Source of the DNA: a phage
Direction: 5' to 3' (one strand)
Sequence record: PZ179883.1
DNA: 64,000 nt
In this document: piece after piece, positions 27,739 through 34,169 of the stretch
Numbering within the stretch: the first letter of the stretch is position 1
Layout of the letters: each line of letters opens with the position of its first letter
The notes under the pieces: model-generated
The model's input: only the letters and a program-made list of their open reading frames with translations
What the model was told of the DNA's origin: nothing
Database searches by the model: none
Made by a program: the position numbers and the translations under genes

Positions 27739-28854
27739 ATGGAAAAATTTATGGCAGAGTTTGGACAAGGATATGTCCAAACGCCATTTTTATCGGAAAG
27801 CAATTCAGTAAGATATAAAATAAGCATAGCGGGCTCTTGCCCGCTTTCTACTGCAGGGCCATATGTTAAATTTCAGGATAATCCCGTTGGAAATCAAACA
27901 TTTAGTGCAGGTCTTCATTTAAGAGTTTTTGACCCTTCTACGGGAGCATTAGTTGATAGTAAGTCATATGCTTTTTCTGCTTCAAACAATACAACATCTG
28001 CCGCTTTTGTCAGTTTTATGAATTCTTTGTCAAACAATAGACTTGTTGCTATATTAACTAGCGGAAAGGTTAATTTTCCTCCTGAAGTGGTATCTTGGTT
28101 AAGGGGAGCAGGAACTTCAGTTTTTCCATCAGATTCAGTATTGTCAAGATTTGACGTATCATATGCTGCTTTTTATACTTCTTCTAAAAGAGCTATTGCA
28201 TTAGAGCATGTTAAACTAAGTAATAGAAAAAGCACAGATGATTATCAAACTATTTTAGATGTTGTATTTGATAGTTTAGAAGACGTCGGAGCTACGGGAT
28301 TTCCTAAAAGAACATATGAAAGTGTCGAGCAATTTATGTCAGCGGTTGGTGGAACTAATAACGAAATTGCGCGATTGCCAACTTCAGCTGCTATAAGTAA
28401 ACTTTCTGACTATAATTTAATTCCTGGTGATGTTCTTTATCTTAAAGCACAGTTATATGCTGATGCTGATTTACTTGATCTTGGAACTACAAACATATCC
28501 ATTCGTTTTTATGATGCATCAAATGGATATATTTCCTCTACCCAAGCTGAGTTTACTGGGCAAGCTGGGTCTTGGGAATTAAAGGAAGATTATGTAGTTG
28601 TTCCTGAAAATGCAGTCGGATTTACTATATATGCGCAGAGAACTGCTCAAGCTGGTCAAGGCGGAATGAGGAATTTAAGCTTTTCTGAAGTATCAAGAAA
28701 TGGCGGCATTTCAAAACCTGCCGAATTTGGCGTCAATGGTATTCGTGTTAATTATGTCTGTGAATCGGCTTCACCTCCAGATATAATGGTACTTCCTACA
28801 CAAGCCTCTTCTAAAACTGGCAAAGTGTTTGGGCAAGAATTTAGAGAAGTTTAA
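27739..28854 (+). CDS. 35: long tail fibre hinge protein gp35
   Basis: 371-aa ORF immediately after gene 34. Confidence 0.88.
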   Translation: MEKFMAEFGQGYVQTPFLSESNSVRYKISIAGSCPLSTAGPYVKFQDNPVGNQTFSAGLHLRVFDPSTGALVDSKSYAFSASNNTTSAAFVSFMNSLSNNRLVAILTSGKVNFPPEVVSWLRGAGTSVFPSDSVLSRFDVSYAAFYTSSKRAIALEHVKLSNRKSTDDYQTILDVVFDSLEDVGATGFPKRTYESVEQFMSAVGGTNNEIARLPTSAAISKLSDYNLIPGDVLYLKAQLYADADLLDLGTTNISIRFYDASNGYISSTQAEFTGQAGSWELKEDYVVVPENAVGFTIYAQRTAQAGQGGMRNLSFSEVSRNGGISKPAEFGVNGIRVNYVCESASPPDIMVLPTQASSKTGKVFGQEFREV

Positions 28855-28916: not shown

Positions 28917-29567
28917 ATGGCTGATTTAAAAGTAGGTTCAACTGTGGGTGGATCTGTCATTTGGCATCAAGGAAATTTTCCATTGAATTCAGCCGGTGAC
29001 GATGTACTCTACAAATCATTTAAAATATATTCAGAATATAATAAACCGCAGGCAGCTGATAACGATTTCGTTTCTAAAGCTAATGGTGGTACTTACACCG
29101 GTCCAATTACTATTAATTACGGGGTAAATAGTTATCTTCAATTAAGTAATAATGAAACCCCTATCCGAATTCGTTCTGGTGGCGGCACCGGTAATACTCT
29201 TGTAATTGGTGGATCTTCTGGTGGTATTAGTTTTAGACCTGCAGGTAGTGAAATCACTACTGGACAAATTACTATTACGCCAGAAGGTTTGACAACATTC
29301 ACCAAAGCTGTAAAGGCTCCATCTGTAACTGTTACATCTAATCCTTCCGCAGCATCAGATGCTACTCGTAAAGATTATGTTGATGGAGCAATAAATACTG
29401 TTACAGCAAATGCAAACTCTAGAGTGTTACGATCTGGTGACACCATGACAGGAAATTTAACTGCGCCAAACCTTTTTTCACAGAATCCTGCATCTCAACC
29501 TTCACACGTTCCACGATTTGACCAAATCGTAATTAAGGATTCTGTTCAAGATTTCGGCTATTATTAA
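28917..29567 (+). CDS. 36: long tail fibre distal connector gp36
   Basis: 216-aa ORF with its own TATAAATA late promoter. Confidence 0.88.
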
Positions 29568-29575
29568 GAGGACTT

Positions 29576-32500
29576 ATGGCTACTTTAAAACAAATACAAT
29601 TTAAAAGAAGCAAAACCGCAGGTCAACTTCCTGCTGCTTCAGTATTAGCCGAAGGTGAATTGGCTATTAATTTAAAAGATAAAACAATTTTCACAAAAGA
29701 TGACTCAGGCAATGTTATAGAATTAGGTTTAAAATATGGAGGAACAATTGATGGTTCTTTAACTGTTAATGGAAATATAATTGGAAATTTAACAGGTAAC
29801 GCTGCAACTGCAACGAAATTAAAAACAGCACGAAAAATTAATGGTATATCATTTGATGGGTCAAAAGATATCACGCTAACTCCATCTGACATAAATGTCA
29901 ATAGCACAACGTTTATAAAAAATAACGGCGAATTACCGGTTGATGCTAATTTAGATGAGTATGGGCCCATTGAAGAATATCTTGGTGTTTGGTCGAAATC
30001 TACTTCAACAAATGCGCAACCGGCAAATAAATTCCCAGAAGAAAATGCCGTAGGTGTACTAGAAGTATTTGTGGCCGGTCAATTTGCTGGTACTCAGAGA
30101 TATACTGTAAGATCTGGTAACGTATATGTTCGATCTTTGTCTGCTAAATGGAACGGTGTTAACGGTCCGTGGGGAGTTTGGCGTAATGTTCAAGCGTCAA
30201 CTCGTCCACTTTCACAAACGATTGACCTTGATAGCTTGGGAGAATTAGAACATTGTGGCTTATGGCGAAACAGTTCAAGCGCAATCGCATCATTTGATCG
30301 CCATTATCCAGAAGAAGGATCAGCCGCACAAGGATTTTTAGAAATATTTGAAGGTGGTTTATACGCGAGAACTCAGCGTTATACAACTAGATCTGGTGTT
30401 GTTTATACTCGCTGTCTTGCTGCTGCATGGGATGCTTCTGCGCCTAAATGGGGACCGTGGCAACAAGTCGGTAATGTCACACCGGCGACTTTCTATGACG
30501 GAGACCTGAATGATTTTAAAGCTCCTGGGTTATATAACATTTTAGGCACTGACGCAGTTACTAACCGTCCAGTTGCAGAAGGCGTTCCGGTTGAGATGAC
30601 CGGATTGCTTGAGGTTAAACAGCGTGCTTCCGGTGGCGCTATTTTCCAACGTTTCACTACCGCAGGAACGGGTGCAACTACGCGATCTCGCGTGTTTGAA
30701 CGTGCAATGACAAATAATATCTGGGGAAATTGGTACGAAGTATATACGTCCTATTCTATGCCAATTACTTTGGGTATGGGTGGTATTAAAACTCAATTAG
30801 CGGAGCTAGATTGGCAAACATTTGATTTTGTTCCTGGTAGTATGTTTAGCGTTCCTTTGAACAAAATAAAGAACATGCCAGCTAATATGGATTGGGGTAC
30901 GATTGACGGAAACTTAATTATGTTTTCTGTTGGTCCTAGCGAGCACACCAGCACAGGACGTACTGTTCAGGTTTGGCGTGGTACTGTATCCCAGACAAAC
31001 TACCGTTATTTTGTCGTTCGTGTATTCGGTAATTCAGGAAATAGAACTTGCACAGTTCGACGCGTTGTTCTTGAAGATGGTCGCCACAAATGGACAGCGC
31101 AACAAGATTTTAATGGTGCAGTTAACTTCGGTGCTCCTACCAATTTTAACTCTACTGTTAACCTTAATAACACTACCACATTTAAAACAGAAGTTAAATT
31201 CCGCTCATCTAATGCATTCCGTATGTATGGCGGAAAATTTGGTACAATTTTCCGTAATGATGGAGAGAGTCTTTATATTCTTTCTACCGACGAAGATGAC
31301 CAAGATGGAAACTTTAATACAAATAGACCTTTCCGTTATGAATTAAGAACTGGCGATGTTACTTTAGGTGGTGCTAGTGGTGCTAACGTTTTAAAATTAG
31401 AACGTAGTTCGCTTGCTGCCACCTTTGGTGGTGATGTTAACTTAAATAAAGGTACACTGACGTTTGAAGCTGGTCGCTTAAACTCCCGCGATTATTTTAA
31501 ATTTAACCATTGGGGTGATAGTAATAATGCTCGTGATAACATCATCCAGTTAGAAGATAGTCAAGGCGCCCATTTTTCCACTGAACGTACTTTAGCGACA
31601 GGTGCAATTAAAACTCGTTTCTTTGGCGAAACATTCACTGATGGTACATTATACCTAAATCAGATGAATAATAGCTCTGAACGATTCTCTATTAATAATT
31701 GGGGAAATTCAGAAGTTGGTCGCGCGGCAGTGATGGAAGTCAGTGATTCCAAAGGTTATCACTTCTATACGGAACGCAGGACAGATAACAGTTTGAATTT
31801 TGATGTTGCTGGCAATTTTACTGCGCATGGACCTTCCGGAATAACCATCAAAAACTCAACTGGTGCACGACATATCTGGTTTAGAGATGATAGCGATGCA
31901 GAAAAGGCTGCTATCTGGGCTACAGATGAGGGTATTTTACATATTCGCAATAATCATGGGGGTTCATTTAGTCATCACTTCCAGGGTGCAATGATTCTAG
32001 CGGGAGAGCGTGTTCCATATAATGGTGAATACGCTCTTATCCGTGGTAATATTTCCGGTGGTGCATGGGTAGACTGGCGAGATCGTCCGGCTGGATTGTT
32101 GGTAGACTGTCAGGACTCACGAAATCAAGCATATAACATTTGGAAAGCTACTCATTGGGGCGAACAGCACCTTGCGGCGATGGGTGTTCATGCTGGCGGT
32201 GGTAATCCTCATGTTGTATTGCATGTGGGTGGGAATGATTATGCATTTGCATCTAACGGTGATTTTACTGCTGGTGCTGCTGTATATTGTAACGACGTTT
32301 ATATTCGTTCTGACCGTCGTCTGAAAATTAATGTTGAAGACTACGAAGAAAATGCGGTGGATAAGGTAAATAAACTCAAAGTTAAAACCTATGATAAAGT
32401 TAAATCTCTTTCTGACCGCGAAGTTATCGGCCATGAGATTGGTATTATCGCACAGGATTTGCAAGAAGTATTACCGGAAGCTGTTAGCACTTCTAGTGTC

Positions 32501-32662
32501 GGATCTCAGGATAACCCAGAAGAAATTTTAACAATTTCAAACTCTGCTGTGAACGCGCTTTTAATTAAGGCCATTCAGGAAATGAGCGAAGAAATTAAAG
32601 AATTGAAAACGCCTCTCTTTACTAAAATTGCTCGCAAAATTAGTAAATATTTTAAATTCTAA
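29576..32662 (+). CDS. 37: long tail fibre distal subunit gp37 with C-terminal intramolecular-chaperone-like domain
   Basis: 1028-aa ORF; last ~117 aa (from [14 protein letters not shown]...) resemble the self-cleaving chaperone domain of T5 L-shaped fibre and endosialidases. Confidence 0.88.
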
Positions 32663-32668
32663 CAACAA

Positions 32669-32686
32669 GGGGGAAATGCCCCCTTT
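32669..32686 (+). terminator. hairpin after gene 37 (weak terminator or mRNA-stabilising stem)
   Basis: GGGGG-AAAUG-CCCCC followed by only UUU; 6 nt after the gene 37 stop. Confidence 0.35.
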
Positions 32687-32698
32687 GGAGTATAAATT

Positions 32699-33481
32699 AT
32701 GGCAGTAGTTGGAGTTCCTGGCTGGATTGGAAGTTCAGCCGTAAATGAAACGGGCCAGCGCTGGATGAGTCAAGCAGCTGGTCAATTAAGATTGGGTGTT
32801 CCTTGCTGGATGAGTCAATTTGCAGGTCGCTCAAGAGAAATTATTCATACACTTGGAGCAGACCATAACTTCAACGGTCAATGGTTCCGAGATAGGTGTT
32901 TTGAGGCAGGTAGTACACCTATAGTGTTTAATATCACTGGAGATTTAGTATCATATTCTAAAGATGTTCCTTTATTCTTCATGTACGGAGATACACCGAA
33001 TGAATATGTTCAACTGAATATACACGGTGTAACGATGTATGGCCGTGGCGGGAATGGCGGTAGCAATAGTCCTGGCTCAGCTGGGGGTCATTGTATTCAA
33101 AATGATATTGGTGGGAGACTAAGAATTAATAATGGCGGAGCTATTGCTGGCGGCGGTGGCGGCGGCGGTGGCGGATATTATTCTCCTTTTTCACAAATGA
33201 GATTGACCTTTGGCGGTGGCGGCGGTCGTCCGTTTGGCGCTCCGGGCGGATCTATTGATATGCAATCAGGAGCAACTGCTGGTACTATTTCTGCGCCAGG
33301 CGCAGGGTCTGTGAACGGTATCTATAACGGCGGGTCTGGTGGTGAAGTTGGATCCGCAGGGGGTAGATGTAATATTCGTGGTCAAGGATATGAATACGAT
33401 GGCGGTGCTGCTGGTTATGCCGTCATAGGGTCTACACCGACATGGCAAAACGTTGGAGCAATATATGGTCCAAGAGTATAA
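32699..33481 (+). CDS. 38: gp38 receptor-recognising adhesin (T2/T6 type)
   Basis: 260-aa ORF with poly-glycine motifs ([16 protein letters not shown]) flanking variable segments; T4 gp38 is a 183-aa chaperone instead. Confidence 0.82.
33149..33226 (+). repeat. GGC/GGT glycine-codon simple repeats in gene 38
   Basis: GGCGGCGGTGGCGGCGGCGGTGGCGGA at 33149..33175 and GGCGGTGGCGGCGGT at 33212..33226. Confidence 0.7.
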
Positions 33482-33512
33482 TTTTGAATAAATATCCTTA
33501 AAAGGAGGGTCT

Positions 33513-34169
33513 ATGGCAGCACCTAGAATATCATTTTCGCCCTCTGATATTCTGTTGGGTGTTCTAGATCGCTTGTTCAAAGATAACGCTACCGGGAATG
33601 TTCTTGCTTCCCGGGTAGCTGTCGTAATTCTTTTATTTATGATGGCGATTGTTTGGTATAGGGGAGATAGTTTCTTTGAGTACTATAAGCAATCAAAGTA
33701 TGAAACATACAGTGAAATTATTGAAAAGGAAAGAAATGCACGCTTTGAATCTGTCGCCCTGGAACAACTCCAGATAGTTCACATATCATCTGAGGCAGAC
33801 TTTAGTGCGGTGTATTCTTTCCGCCCTAAAAACTTAAACTATTTTGTTGATATTATAGCATATGAAGGAAAATTACCTTCAACAATAAGTGAAAAATCAC
33901 TTGGAGGATATCCTGTTGATAAAACTATGGATGAATATGCAGTTCATTTAAATGGACGTCATTATTATTCCGACTCAAAATTTGCTTTTTTACCAACTAA
34001 AAAGCCTACTCCCGAAATAAATTACATGTACAGTTGTCCATATTTCAATTTGGATAATATCTATGCTGGAACAATAACCATGTACTGGTATAGAAATGAT
34101 CATATAAGTAATGACCGCCTTGAATCAATATGTGCTCAGGCGGCCAGAATATTAGGAAGGGCTAAATAA
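33513..34169 (+). CDS. t: holin T
   Basis: 218-aa ORF MAAPRISFSPSDILLGVLDRLFKD... with one N-proximal transmembrane helix and a large periplasmic domain; matches T4 T. Confidence 0.9.
   Translation: MAAPRISFSPSDILLGVLDRLFKDNATGNVLASRVAVVILLFMMAIVWYRGDSFFEYYKQSKYETYSEIIEKERNARFESVALEQLQIVHISSEADFSAVYSFRPKNLNYFVDIIAYEGKLPSTISEKSLGGYPVDKTMDEYAVHLNGRHYYSDSKFAFLPTKKPTPEINYMYSCPYFNLDNIYAGTITMYWYRNDHISNDRLESICAQAARILGRAK

Follow-up and report, generated by a model that had tools for sequence, protein, structure and literature searches.

A T6-type gp38 adhesin gene with repeated glycine-codon runs in a T4-like coliphage

According to PMC3157838, the gp38 of T4 is an assembly chaperone and not an adhesin, and is unrelated to the gp38 adhesins of other T4-like phages, with which it has the gene name and the locus alone in common. 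Those of RB3, RB5, RB14 and T6 use the nucleoside channel Tsx (PMC3157838), and the Tsx dependence of WilhelmHis (Bas35) has been complemented experimentally (PMC8594841). PP01, the receptor-binding domain of whose gp38 is PDB entry 9V85, uses OmpC and not Tsx (PMC12892980), and the same is given for S16 by the title of Marti 2013, which that paper cites. Related T6-type alleles are present in PST and fPS-65, although on Yersinia these phages use receptors other than Tsx or in addition to it (PMC3157838, PMC7917993). PMC12032242 attributes to Tétart 1998 and Trojet 2011 the notion that the glycine-rich motifs (GRMs) are hotspots of recombination. The gene, the family, the fold, the modular design of GRMs and hypervariable segments (HVSs) and the proposal of exchange at GRMs are all published, the rearrangement idea since 1998.

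The window, i.e. the whole stretch of 64,000 nucleotides of phage DNA that was analysed (sequence record PZ179883.1), contains an ordinary gp38 gene for a tail-fibre tip adhesin of the T6/RB5 type, one that has been catalogued before; its product is 100% identical to P0001, a protein already public. As the hypothesis has been published and the exact protein is in the databases, the locus has little weight as a discovery. Its practical value is in annotation, since it marks a phage with a T6/RB5-type adhesin that is probably Tsx-specific, which aids host-range prediction for therapy or typing. Taken as a whole, the explanation of a T6-type gp38 adhesin with predicted Tsx specificity and with glycine-codon runs prone to misalignment appears highly probable.

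The gene 38 locus and its product

The ORF at positions 32699..33481 of the window (plus strand, as are all features below unless stated) encodes 260 amino acids followed by a stop codon and is gene 38 of a T4-like coliphage of the Tequatrovirus type. It lies between gene 37 and the holin gene t in the order g35-g36-g37-g38-t, and the g38-t order is also found in T2, T6, RB3, RB14, S16 and M1. Its product matches the Pfam profiles GP38 (2e-71, positions 1-218 of 218) and Gp38_N (1.2e-20, positions 1-40 of 40) over their full length, as well as the PDB entries 9V85 (1.3e-79) and 6F45_D (4.8e-50). When the AlphaFold model of the protein (pLDDT 87.5, pTM 0.80) was submitted to Foldseek, the only matches were again 9V85 and 6F45_D (E values of 3e-27 and 1e-21, TM up to 0.89), and the predicted fold is the polyglycine-rich sandwich of the S16 and PP01 gp38 proteins.

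The initial annotation had taken the gene for an adhesin-type gp38, and the Pfam and PDB relatives, the predicted fold and the gene order bear this out to the point of near certainty. A T4-type gp38, i.e. a gp37-assembly chaperone absent from the virion, would have the same gene number and the same place downstream of g37, and several database records do name homologs 'distal long tail fiber assembly catalyst'. However, the full-length match to the adhesin families PF05268 and PF21721, the match to solved adhesin structures and the presence in the window gp37 of its own intramolecular chaperone, Peptidase_S74, reduce the probability of such a function to almost nil.

[quoted passage not shown] The preceding part (aa 1-911, 29576..32308; Gp34_trimer match at aa 521-587) corresponds to the mature distal long-tail-fibre subunit, the tip of which is the gp38 docking site. 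At the junction, the motif DVYIR|SD (gp37 aa 907-913) fits the cleavage motif reported for S16 and the fPS phages (PMC7917993), and by analogy with that report the chaperone is predicted to be cleaved off, exposing the docking tip. Monomeric gp38 would then cap the tip of the trimeric gp37 long-tail fibre, with its N-terminal 42 residues docking on gp37 once the C-terminal chaperone has been removed.

Between genes 37 and 38, a GC-rich hairpin, AGGGGG-AAATG-CCCCCT, occupies 32668..32684 (RNA MFE of -14.8 kcal/mol, z = -2.9); phage G2133 has an annotated terminator at the corresponding position. The region directly upstream of the ATG reads as a GGAG ribosome-binding site (32687-32690) followed by TATAAATT (32691-32698), a candidate late promoter that matches the T4 late-promoter motif (consensus TATAAATA) at 7 of 8 positions. 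A scan for sigma-70 promoters and terminators around g38 yielded nothing relevant above shuffle expectation. On the other side, the conserved right-hand neighbour, holin gene t, is found at 33513..34169 (Pfam Phage_holin_T, 2.9e-116). An antisense ORF of 104 aa at 33266..33580, within the part of g38 that is GC-rich (its second half), was regarded as a chance occurrence.

The N-terminal attachment domain of gp38 (aa 1-42, 32699..32824; Gp38_N match at aa 1-42) contains tryptophans at positions 9, 22 and 37 and assorts independently of the remaining gene in the relatives. Two WMSQ motifs are encoded there by an imperfect direct repeat of 32 nt (32760-32791 and 32805-32836). The attachment domain is followed by a conserved N-proximal domain (aa 43-114, 32825..33040), modelled with pLDDT > 90 from about aa 51, whose nucleotide identity to T6 is only 75% but reaches 93-99% to ECO07P4, ZN18, RB3, RB14, L006, AV121, LF73P4, L007, kvi, M1 and G2133.

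Glycine-rich motifs, hypervariable segments and the predicted receptor

The boundaries of the GRMs and HVSs are our own and follow the scheme of PMC3157838. The comparison covered the gp38 proteins of T2, T6, Ox2, M1, S16 and PP01, in place of the K3 that had been suggested. Invariance was scored in a 12-sequence and in a 37-sequence alignment, and HVS types were counted among ~148 distinct relatives at an arbitrary threshold of 60% identity.

GRM1 (aa 115-121, GRGGNGG; 33041..33061), in which G115, R116, G117, G118 and G120 are invariant in both the 12 and the 37 sequences, precedes HVS1 (aa 122-128, SNSPGSA; 33062..33082), for which 15 types were counted and which has indels in the Ox2/PP01 types. 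A conserved core (aa 129-150, 33083..33148), with G129, G130, I133, N135, G138, L141, R142, I143, N145, G147 and I149 invariant, leads to GRM2 (aa 151-159, 33149..33175), a run of nine glycine codons with G152-G156 invariant. HVS2 (aa 160-171, 33176..33211; 21 types) is a predicted beta-hairpin loop, its strands being assigned to residues 159-164 and 167-172 by DSSP of the model. GRM3 (aa 172-184, 33212..33250) begins with a run of five glycine codons; G172-G176, R177, P178 and G180 do not vary in either alignment, and F179 is invariant in the 12 sequences and nearly so in the 37. HVS3 (aa 185-210, 33251..33328; 18 types) and HVS4 (aa 223-234, 33365..33400; 19 types) have amino-acid identities to M1, Ox2, T2 and S16 of only 12-36% and 0-18%, respectively. 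They are separated by GRM4 (aa 211-222, 33329..33364), where G212, G214, G215, G218 and G221 are invariant in the 12 sequences, G218 and G221 remaining strictly and the three others nearly invariant in the 37. GRM5 and the conserved C-terminus (aa 235-260, 33401..33478), with G235, G236, A237 and G239 invariant in the 12-sequence alignment, complete the protein.

The five GRMs thus occur in a fixed order with the four HVSs between them, and in the MAFFT alignment their glycines match those of T6, M1, Ox2, T2 and S16 column for column, variability and indels relative to these phages being confined to the intervening segments. The proposal that the glycine motifs frame hypervariable loops is therefore supported by the very alignment that might have spoken against it, as the motifs do line up with those of the known gp38 adhesins. 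The glycine-codon runs are conserved scaffold motifs of the gp38 family, and the four HVSs would extend from this scaffold as distal loops that make contact with the receptor.

The HVS set of the window protein is of the T6 type: its combination (0,0,0,0,0,0) also occurs in T6 and in 25 further distinct sequences, and the amino-acid identity of its HVSs to those of RB3, RB14 and T6 is 81-100%. Because the loops match those of T6, RB3/RB5 and WilhelmHis, Tsx is predicted, with good confidence, to be the receptor on E. coli by analogy with these phages.

Glycine-codon runs and natural rearrangements

At the DNA level, the poly-glycine GGC/GGT runs that the initial annotation had pointed out in the 260-aa gp38 are present. 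Positions 33149-33175 read GGC GGC GGT GGC GGC GGC GGT GGC GGA (nine in-frame glycine codons) and positions 33212-33226 read GGC GGT GGC GGC GGT (five in-frame codons, aa 172-176), the other glycine motifs being ten GG dipeptides; in total, 62 of the 260 residues are glycine. The Tandem Repeats Finder algorithm (TRF) reported a perfect 12-nt tandem repeat of 2.2 copies at 33149-33174, and a repeat search identified the exact 14-mer GGCGGTGGCGGCGG at 33152-33165 in GRM2 and at 33212-33225 in GRM3, 60 nt (20 aa) apart. This 14-mer occurs twice in the window versus 0 times expected from shuffles, a control that is too lenient: a shared stretch of at least 14 nt appeared in 29% of simulations of two glycine runs of these lengths made of GGC and GGT only. 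Since such a match is expected that often by chance, nothing suggests that it was selected as a recombination signal.

The non-random part of the repeat is the codon alphabet. GGC represents 37.5% of the glycine codons in the C-terminal domain, whereas its share across 45 other ORFs in the window is 14.8% (odds ratio of 3.4, Fisher p = 1.7e-4), and among 67 distinct glycine runs from relatives GGC and GGT account for 94.5% of the non-terminal codons versus a baseline of 62%. Wobble diversity is higher within the runs than elsewhere (0.437 versus 0.28-0.29, p = 0.013), which led us to reject the idea that the GRM codons are conserved at the DNA level as 'linkers'. A role for Chi sites was likewise rejected, as GCTGGTGG is absent from both strands of g38. 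Compared with the nearest relative, the 27 nt of GRM2 carry 5 of the 12 nucleotide differences (P = 3e-5), a density 20-fold higher than elsewhere.

Several relatives carry alleles in which the junctions of rearrangements or mosaics coincide with glycine-codon motifs. Perfect tandem duplications of HVS2 are present in ZN18, where the duplication measures 51 nt and is bounded by GGCGGTGGCGGCGG, and in PYps47T, where it measures 54 nt and is bounded by another 14-mer, GGCGGCGGTGGCGG, and hence derives from an independent event. In AV121, GRM2 consists of 12 glycine codons, (GGCGGCGGT)x3 + GGCGGCGGA, which amounts to one extra GGCGGCGGT unit and a 9-nt expansion. The nucleotide identity of M1 to the window is 93-100% as far as mid-GRM2, 36-49% across HVS2-HVS4 and 91% from GRM5 on; within GRM2, the identity drops from ~98% to 39% over a few codons, and the right boundary of the cassette is at GRM5. 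Among 138 database proteins, four variants lacking HVS2 and one contracted GRM2 were found, the HVS2-less variants originating from read-archive or metagenome assemblies in which they could be assembly collapses. A megablast search with the duplication junction gave, among the 25 matches listed, a single-piece match only to ZN18, which is represented by two records; unduplicated records were also matched, as two overlapping pieces.

Errors of sequencing or assembly, in a stretch that is GC-rich and of low complexity, might account for these rearrangements and for the clustering of differences in the glycine runs. Short-read assemblers do collapse repeats, and Logan or ENA assemblies are the source of most of the HVS2-less proteins (four) and the contracted GRM2, several of which are on short contigs. 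ZN18 and PYps47T are, however, finished isolate genomes from different laboratories, their duplications are both perfect and in frame but in different registers, the PYps47T insertion was independently reported by Hammerl et al. (PMC8762354), and a unit of 51-54 nt is shorter than the read length, so that its duplication is not a typical assembly error. An artefactual origin is thus very improbable.

A more serious alternative is that the glycine motifs are purely structural, forming a polyglycine-II scaffold, and that the DNA repeats are a by-product with a negligible evolutionary role, host range shifting instead when the loops acquire point mutations and when the whole specificity domain is replaced, with crossovers not in the GRMs but in the long flanks that are conserved (the N-proximal domain and the C-terminus/gene t). 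The chance expectation for the common 14-mer and the non-conserved wobble pattern of the runs agree with this, as do several further observations. No four-combination quartet indicative of independent reassortment was found for HVS1/2, HVS2/3 or HVS3/4 among the ~148 distinct sequences, and three-combination cases are few (e.g. P0008, P0009 and P0017); linkage between the HVS types is tight, whereas the N-terminal modules combine freely with the specificity cassette, and reshuffling within the domain looks rare in nature. In L007 and G2133 the switch is at aa 42/43, distant from all GRMs. An exchange inside GRM1..GRM5 was seen in none of 14 laboratory recombinants (PMC3157838), and PST gains Yersinia infectivity with 3 residues different from T6 (PMC3157838). 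On the other hand, a purely structural role does not readily account for two independent perfect duplications with 14-nt glycine-codon flanks in complete isolate genomes, for the unit expansion in AV121, for the M1 boundaries inside GRM2 and at GRM5, or for the 20-fold density of differences in GRM2. We regard it as possible but rather unlikely, and consider it fairly likely that the glycine-codon runs are real substrates for rearrangement in the gp38 family.

As such substrates, the GRM2 and GRM3 runs could misalign by replication slippage or unequal exchange and thereby duplicate or delete HVS2, slippage inside a single run would alter its length, and the conserved GRM2 and GRM5 could serve as end-points when recombination with another allele replaces the whole loop cassette. 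The initial annotation had proposed that the repeats are suited to recombination or slippage and could drive host-range switching. The first part is supported by the rearrangements in ZN18, PYps47T, AV121 and M1, whereas the part on host range is only correlative: PYps47T lyses 52/128 Y. pseudotuberculosis strains versus 78-87/128 for its siblings PYps14T, 15T and 32T (PMC8762354), a narrower range that points in the direction opposite to a gain of hosts. It is doubtful that rearrangement of glycine runs is an important route of host-range change. Equally tentative is the more specific proposal that GRM2-GRM3 misalignment is a recurrent natural route of HVS2 duplication and deletion in T6-type adhesins, with at least two independent origins in phages isolated on Yersinia pseudotuberculosis, that it alters receptor or host preference, and that the window allele, with its 14-nt pair in a 60-nt (20-aa) register, represents the unduplicated precursor. 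The HVS2 duplications with their 14-nt glycine-codon flanks, together with the very fast wobble scrambling of GRM2, make the long-standing hotspot hypothesis concretely and cheaply testable.

Comparison with known gp38 adhesins

The gp38 proteins of RB3/RB5 (P0124) and T6 (P0005; AP018814) are encoded in the same g37-g38-t context and are 98% and 92% (BLASTP; 93% by MAFFT) identical to the window protein, respectively. Both differ from it by a few substitutions in HVS3, GRM4 and HVS4 and by the sequence in which GGC and GGT alternate along GRM2 and GRM3; T6 differs in addition by the diverged patch at aa 43-114 (75% nucleotide identity) and by one extra glycine before GRM1. The WilhelmHis protein belongs to the same 90% cluster and is 95% identical, with identical HVS1 and HVS2; five of its 13 substitutions (A194G, A202S, S213N, Y231S and D234N) are in HVS3, GRM4 or HVS4 or adjoin HVS3 or HVS4.

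The more distant gp38 proteins of the S16 gp37-gp38 tip complex (6F45) and of PP01 (9V85) have the fold predicted here and the same GRM pattern, but are only 43% and 67% identical to the window protein over the aligned residues and differ in their loops. In the OmpA-type gp38 of M1 (X05676), HVS2-HVS4 are replaced relative to the window (36-49% nucleotide and 17-36% amino-acid identity), as in a cassette swap ending in GRM2 and GRM5. The Yersinia phages vB_YepM_ZN18 and PYps47T, finally, have the same T6-type gp38 allele as the window, and the C-terminal domain of the ZN18 protein is identical to that of the window protein apart from the insertion. In ZN18 and PYps47T, HVS2 and a glycine run are tandemly duplicated over 17 and 18 aa, respectively, whereas the window allele is unduplicated and has its own 14-mer pair in the 60-nt register.

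Family membership and gene context of gp38

The g38 gene (32699..33481, + strand) codes for a 260-aa protein that belongs to the T2/T6-type adhesin family, and within it to the T6/RB5 subtype; every sequence, fold and context criterion tested placed it in this family. The protein matched the Pfam families GP38 over the whole profile (2e-71) and Gp38_N (1.2e-20), and its solved relatives were 9V85 (1.3e-79) and chain D of 6F45 (4.8e-50), the latter being the S16 gp37-gp38 tip complex. The AlphaFold model, based on an input alignment of 37 sequences, had a mean pLDDT of 87.5 and a pTM of 0.80, with values below 50 at residues 1-14 only. When this model was compared to the PDB using Foldseek, 9V85, which is the receptor-binding domain of phage PP01 gp38 fused to sfGFP (PMC12892980), was recovered with an E of 3e-27 and a TM of 0.89 on the target and 6F45_D with an E of 1e-21, all other matches having an E of at least 2. 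The surroundings of g38 are a canonical distal-fibre module, in which the genes for gp35 (27739-28854), gp36 (28917-29567) and gp37 (29576-32662, with a C-terminal Peptidase_S74 intramolecular chaperone at aa 912-970) precede g38 and the holin gene t (33513-34169, Phage_holin_T 2.9e-116) follows it. The Pfam matches, the fold and this gene order bear out the adhesin type proposed in the initial annotation; the T4 gp38 chaperone is unrelated. The gp37 protein contains DVYIR|SD at aa 907-913, a motif described as the cleavage and docking site in S16 and the fPS phages (PMC7917993).

A 100% identical protein (P0001) is already public and represents a 155-member cluster (90% identity) including RB3/RB5, WilhelmHis, L14 and UGKSEcP1; the nearest DNA in the phage collection is that of Escherichia phage ECO07P4 (98.5%). 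In NCBI, P0001 is labelled 'receptor-recognizing protein [Bacillus cereus]' (PJZ22119.1) and sits on a contig of 171.5 kb; its most likely source is contamination of that assembly by a T4-like coliphage.

A GC hairpin (AGGGGG-AAATG-CCCCCT, 32668-32684; RNA MFE -14.8 kcal/mol, z = -2.9) lies between the g37 stop and g38, at a position where a terminator is annotated in phage G2133. It is followed on its 3' side by GGAG and then by TATAAATT, which abuts the g38 ATG and fits the T4 late-promoter motif at 7/8 positions. An imperfect 32-nt direct repeat (32760-32791 and 32805-32836) encodes two WMSQ motifs; with W9 included, gp38 has three tryptophans (aa 9, 22 and 37) spaced by 13-15 residues, a triplet that may correspond to the three-fold gp37 tip docked by the monomer. 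An antisense ORF of 104 aa (33266-33580, - strand) lies opposite the start of gene t and the GC-rich 3' half of g38 and is probably a chance ORF of the Gly-codon-rich region. The gp35 hinge protein matched the Pfam family ILEI, interleukin-like EMT inducer, at aa 58-112 (PF15711, 8e-08), an odd family name for a phage fibre connector.

Glycine-rich motifs and their codon alphabet

In alignments of 12, 29 and 37 sequences, in which T6, M1, Ox2, T2 and S16 were compared, the glycine motifs of gp38 fell on invariant or nearly invariant common columns. These are G115, R116, G117, G118 and G120; G129 and G130; G152 to G156; G172 to G176, R177, P178 and G180, with F179 invariant in 12 and nearly so in 37 sequences; G218 and G221 in all three alignments, with G212, G214 and G215 constant in the set of 12 and almost constant in that of 37; and, in the 12-sequence alignment, G235, G236, A237 and G239. 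Variability and indels occur between the motifs. The protein thus has five glycine-rich motifs (GRMs) and four hypervariable segments (HVSs), the architecture described by Trojet et al. 2011 (PMC3157838). Since the motifs align with columns of characterised gp38 adhesins, the proposal that they frame hypervariable loops holds.

The poly-glycine runs noted initially are real and written almost entirely in GGC and GGT. GRM2 (33149-33175) reads GGC GGC GGT GGC GGC GGC GGT GGC GGA, i.e. nine in-frame Gly codons (aa 151-159), and the run at 33212-33226 reads GGC GGT GGC GGC GGT (five Gly codons, aa 172-176); overall, 62/260 residues are Gly, 48 of them in the C-terminal 145 residues. A repeat search found the exact 14-mer GGCGGTGGCGGCGG in both runs (33152-33165 and 33212-33225), and TRF detected 2.2 perfect tandem copies of a 12-nt unit at 33149-33174. 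The window contains the 14-mer two times and none of 100 shuffles contains it, but this control is too lenient, as two simulated runs written solely in GGC and GGT share a stretch of at least 14 nt in 29% of cases. The codon alphabet itself is clearly non-random. In the C-terminal domain, 37.5% of the Gly codons are GGC, compared with 14.8% over 45 other window ORFs (Fisher p = 1.7e-4, odds ratio 3.4), and GGC or GGT accounts for 94.5% of the non-terminal codons in 67 distinct Gly runs of relatives versus a 62% baseline, although the relatedness of these sequences inflates the nominal p-value. The G+C content is 52% in the C-terminal half of g38 and 35.5% in the window.

Probable rearrangement and exchange at the glycine runs

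Sequence comparisons indicate that the Gly-codon repeats do rearrange in natural relatives. The 277-aa gp38 of Yersinia phage vB_YepM_ZN18 has a C-terminal domain identical to that of the window protein save one insertion, a perfect tandem duplication of 51 nt that codes for 17 aa and is bounded by GGCGGTGGCGGCGG, the 14-mer that both closes GRM2 and opens GRM3. In Yersinia phage PYps47T (P0131), the same loop (HVS2) underwent a perfect 54-nt duplication, which is independent of the former because the bounding 14-mer, GGCGGCGGTGGCGG, and the allelic background differ. The GRM2 of AV121 has 12 Gly codons, (GGCGGCGGT)x3 plus GGCGGCGGA, corresponding to one additional 9-nt unit. Among 138 database proteins, four (P0020, P0023, P0027 and P0120) have GRM2 fused to GRM3 without HVS2, and one (P0112) has GRM2 cut to four Gly; as these come from assemblies, they may be assembly artefacts or collapses, defective genomes or reciprocal products of duplication.

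Five of the 12 nucleotide differences between the window gene and its nearest relative are synonymous C/T changes in the 27-nt GRM2 (20-fold enrichment, P = 3e-5). Third-position diversity in the T6-like clade is 0.437 in the two Gly runs versus 0.28-0.29 elsewhere (p = 0.013), and even between close relatives the wobble positions are almost saturated, which is more readily explained by frequent realignment or short-patch conversion than by independent point mutation.

Compared to the window gene, the OmpA-type M1 allele is 93-100% identical in nucleotides up to the fifth GRM2 codon, 36-49% in HVS2-HVS4 and 91% from GRM5 onwards, a profile indicating cassette replacement with end-points inside glycine motifs. 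GRM2 is also a switch point in the kvi and G2133 alleles; another switch, at aa 42/43 and far from the GRMs, is seen in G2133 and L007. The adhesin cassette crosses genus boundaries, since the Krischvirus phages LF73P4 (L041 1501-2283, 95% aa) and kvi (Krischvirus RB49, L037 1501-2280, 85% aa) hold a T6-like gp38. In LF73P4, nucleotide identity falls to 71% in the last segment (GRM5 and C-terminus); in kvi, an additional small ORF separates g38 from the holin gene, and the record annotates the GRM2 codon run as 'repeat_region'. T6 diverges at aa 43-114 (window 32825-33040; 75% nt, flanks 86-100%), which points to a distinct recombination patch within the conserved N-proximal region.

This reading has its limits. 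When about 148 distinct sequences were typed by HVS at 60% identity per segment, no adjacent HVS pair displayed all four combinations of two types, and HVS types are tightly linked; the N-terminal modules, by contrast, are freely combined with the specificity cassette. Efficient homologous exchange in T4 reportedly needs tens of base pairs (work of Singer et al. in 1982). As a 14-nt homology is short in comparison, slippage or microhomology-mediated events seem more plausible at the Gly runs than classical crossovers. Among 220 progeny, none with a GRM or HVS deletion was recovered (PMC3157838). PYps47T, which is viable with its duplication, lysed 52/128 Y. pseudotuberculosis strains, and its siblings PYps14T, 15T and 32T 78-87/128 (PMC8762354); the variant may alter the host range, but the link is correlative. 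The duplications, the AV121 expansion and the M1 end-points support the initial idea of repeats as recombination or slippage substrates, its host-range part being correlative.

Proposed loop duplication and receptor prediction

In the model, HVS2 is a beta-hairpin (strands 159-164 and 167-172) with the two glycine runs on either side. Were the hairpin duplicated along with five Gly, the distal tip would gain another hairpin, connected through a short Gly linker. The 14-mer copies in the window lie 60 nt apart, so that an analogous slip would add or remove 20 codons, leaving an eight-Gly middle run. Taken as a whole, the initial observation was confirmed and its interpretation supported. The feature is textbook biology and the allele already catalogued; what is new is modest and limited to the two independent duplications, with 14-nt repeats at their borders, and the wobble hotspot of GRM2, for neither of which a mechanistic description was found in the searchable literature.

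The window gp38 is 98% identical to that of RB3/RB5, 95% to that of WilhelmHis (Bas35) and 92% (BLASTP) or 93% (alignment) to that of T6. Tsx is the receptor of RB3, RB5, RB14 and T6 (PMC3157838), and the Tsx dependence of WilhelmHis was shown by genetic complementation (PMC8594841). As these close relatives use Tsx, it is the best prediction for the E. coli receptor of the window gp38. WilhelmHis has the same HVS1 and HVS2 and differs in the specificity domain by A194G, A202S, S213N, Y231S and D234N. PST and fPS-65 carry related T6-type alleles, yet on Yersinia their receptors are different or additional ones.
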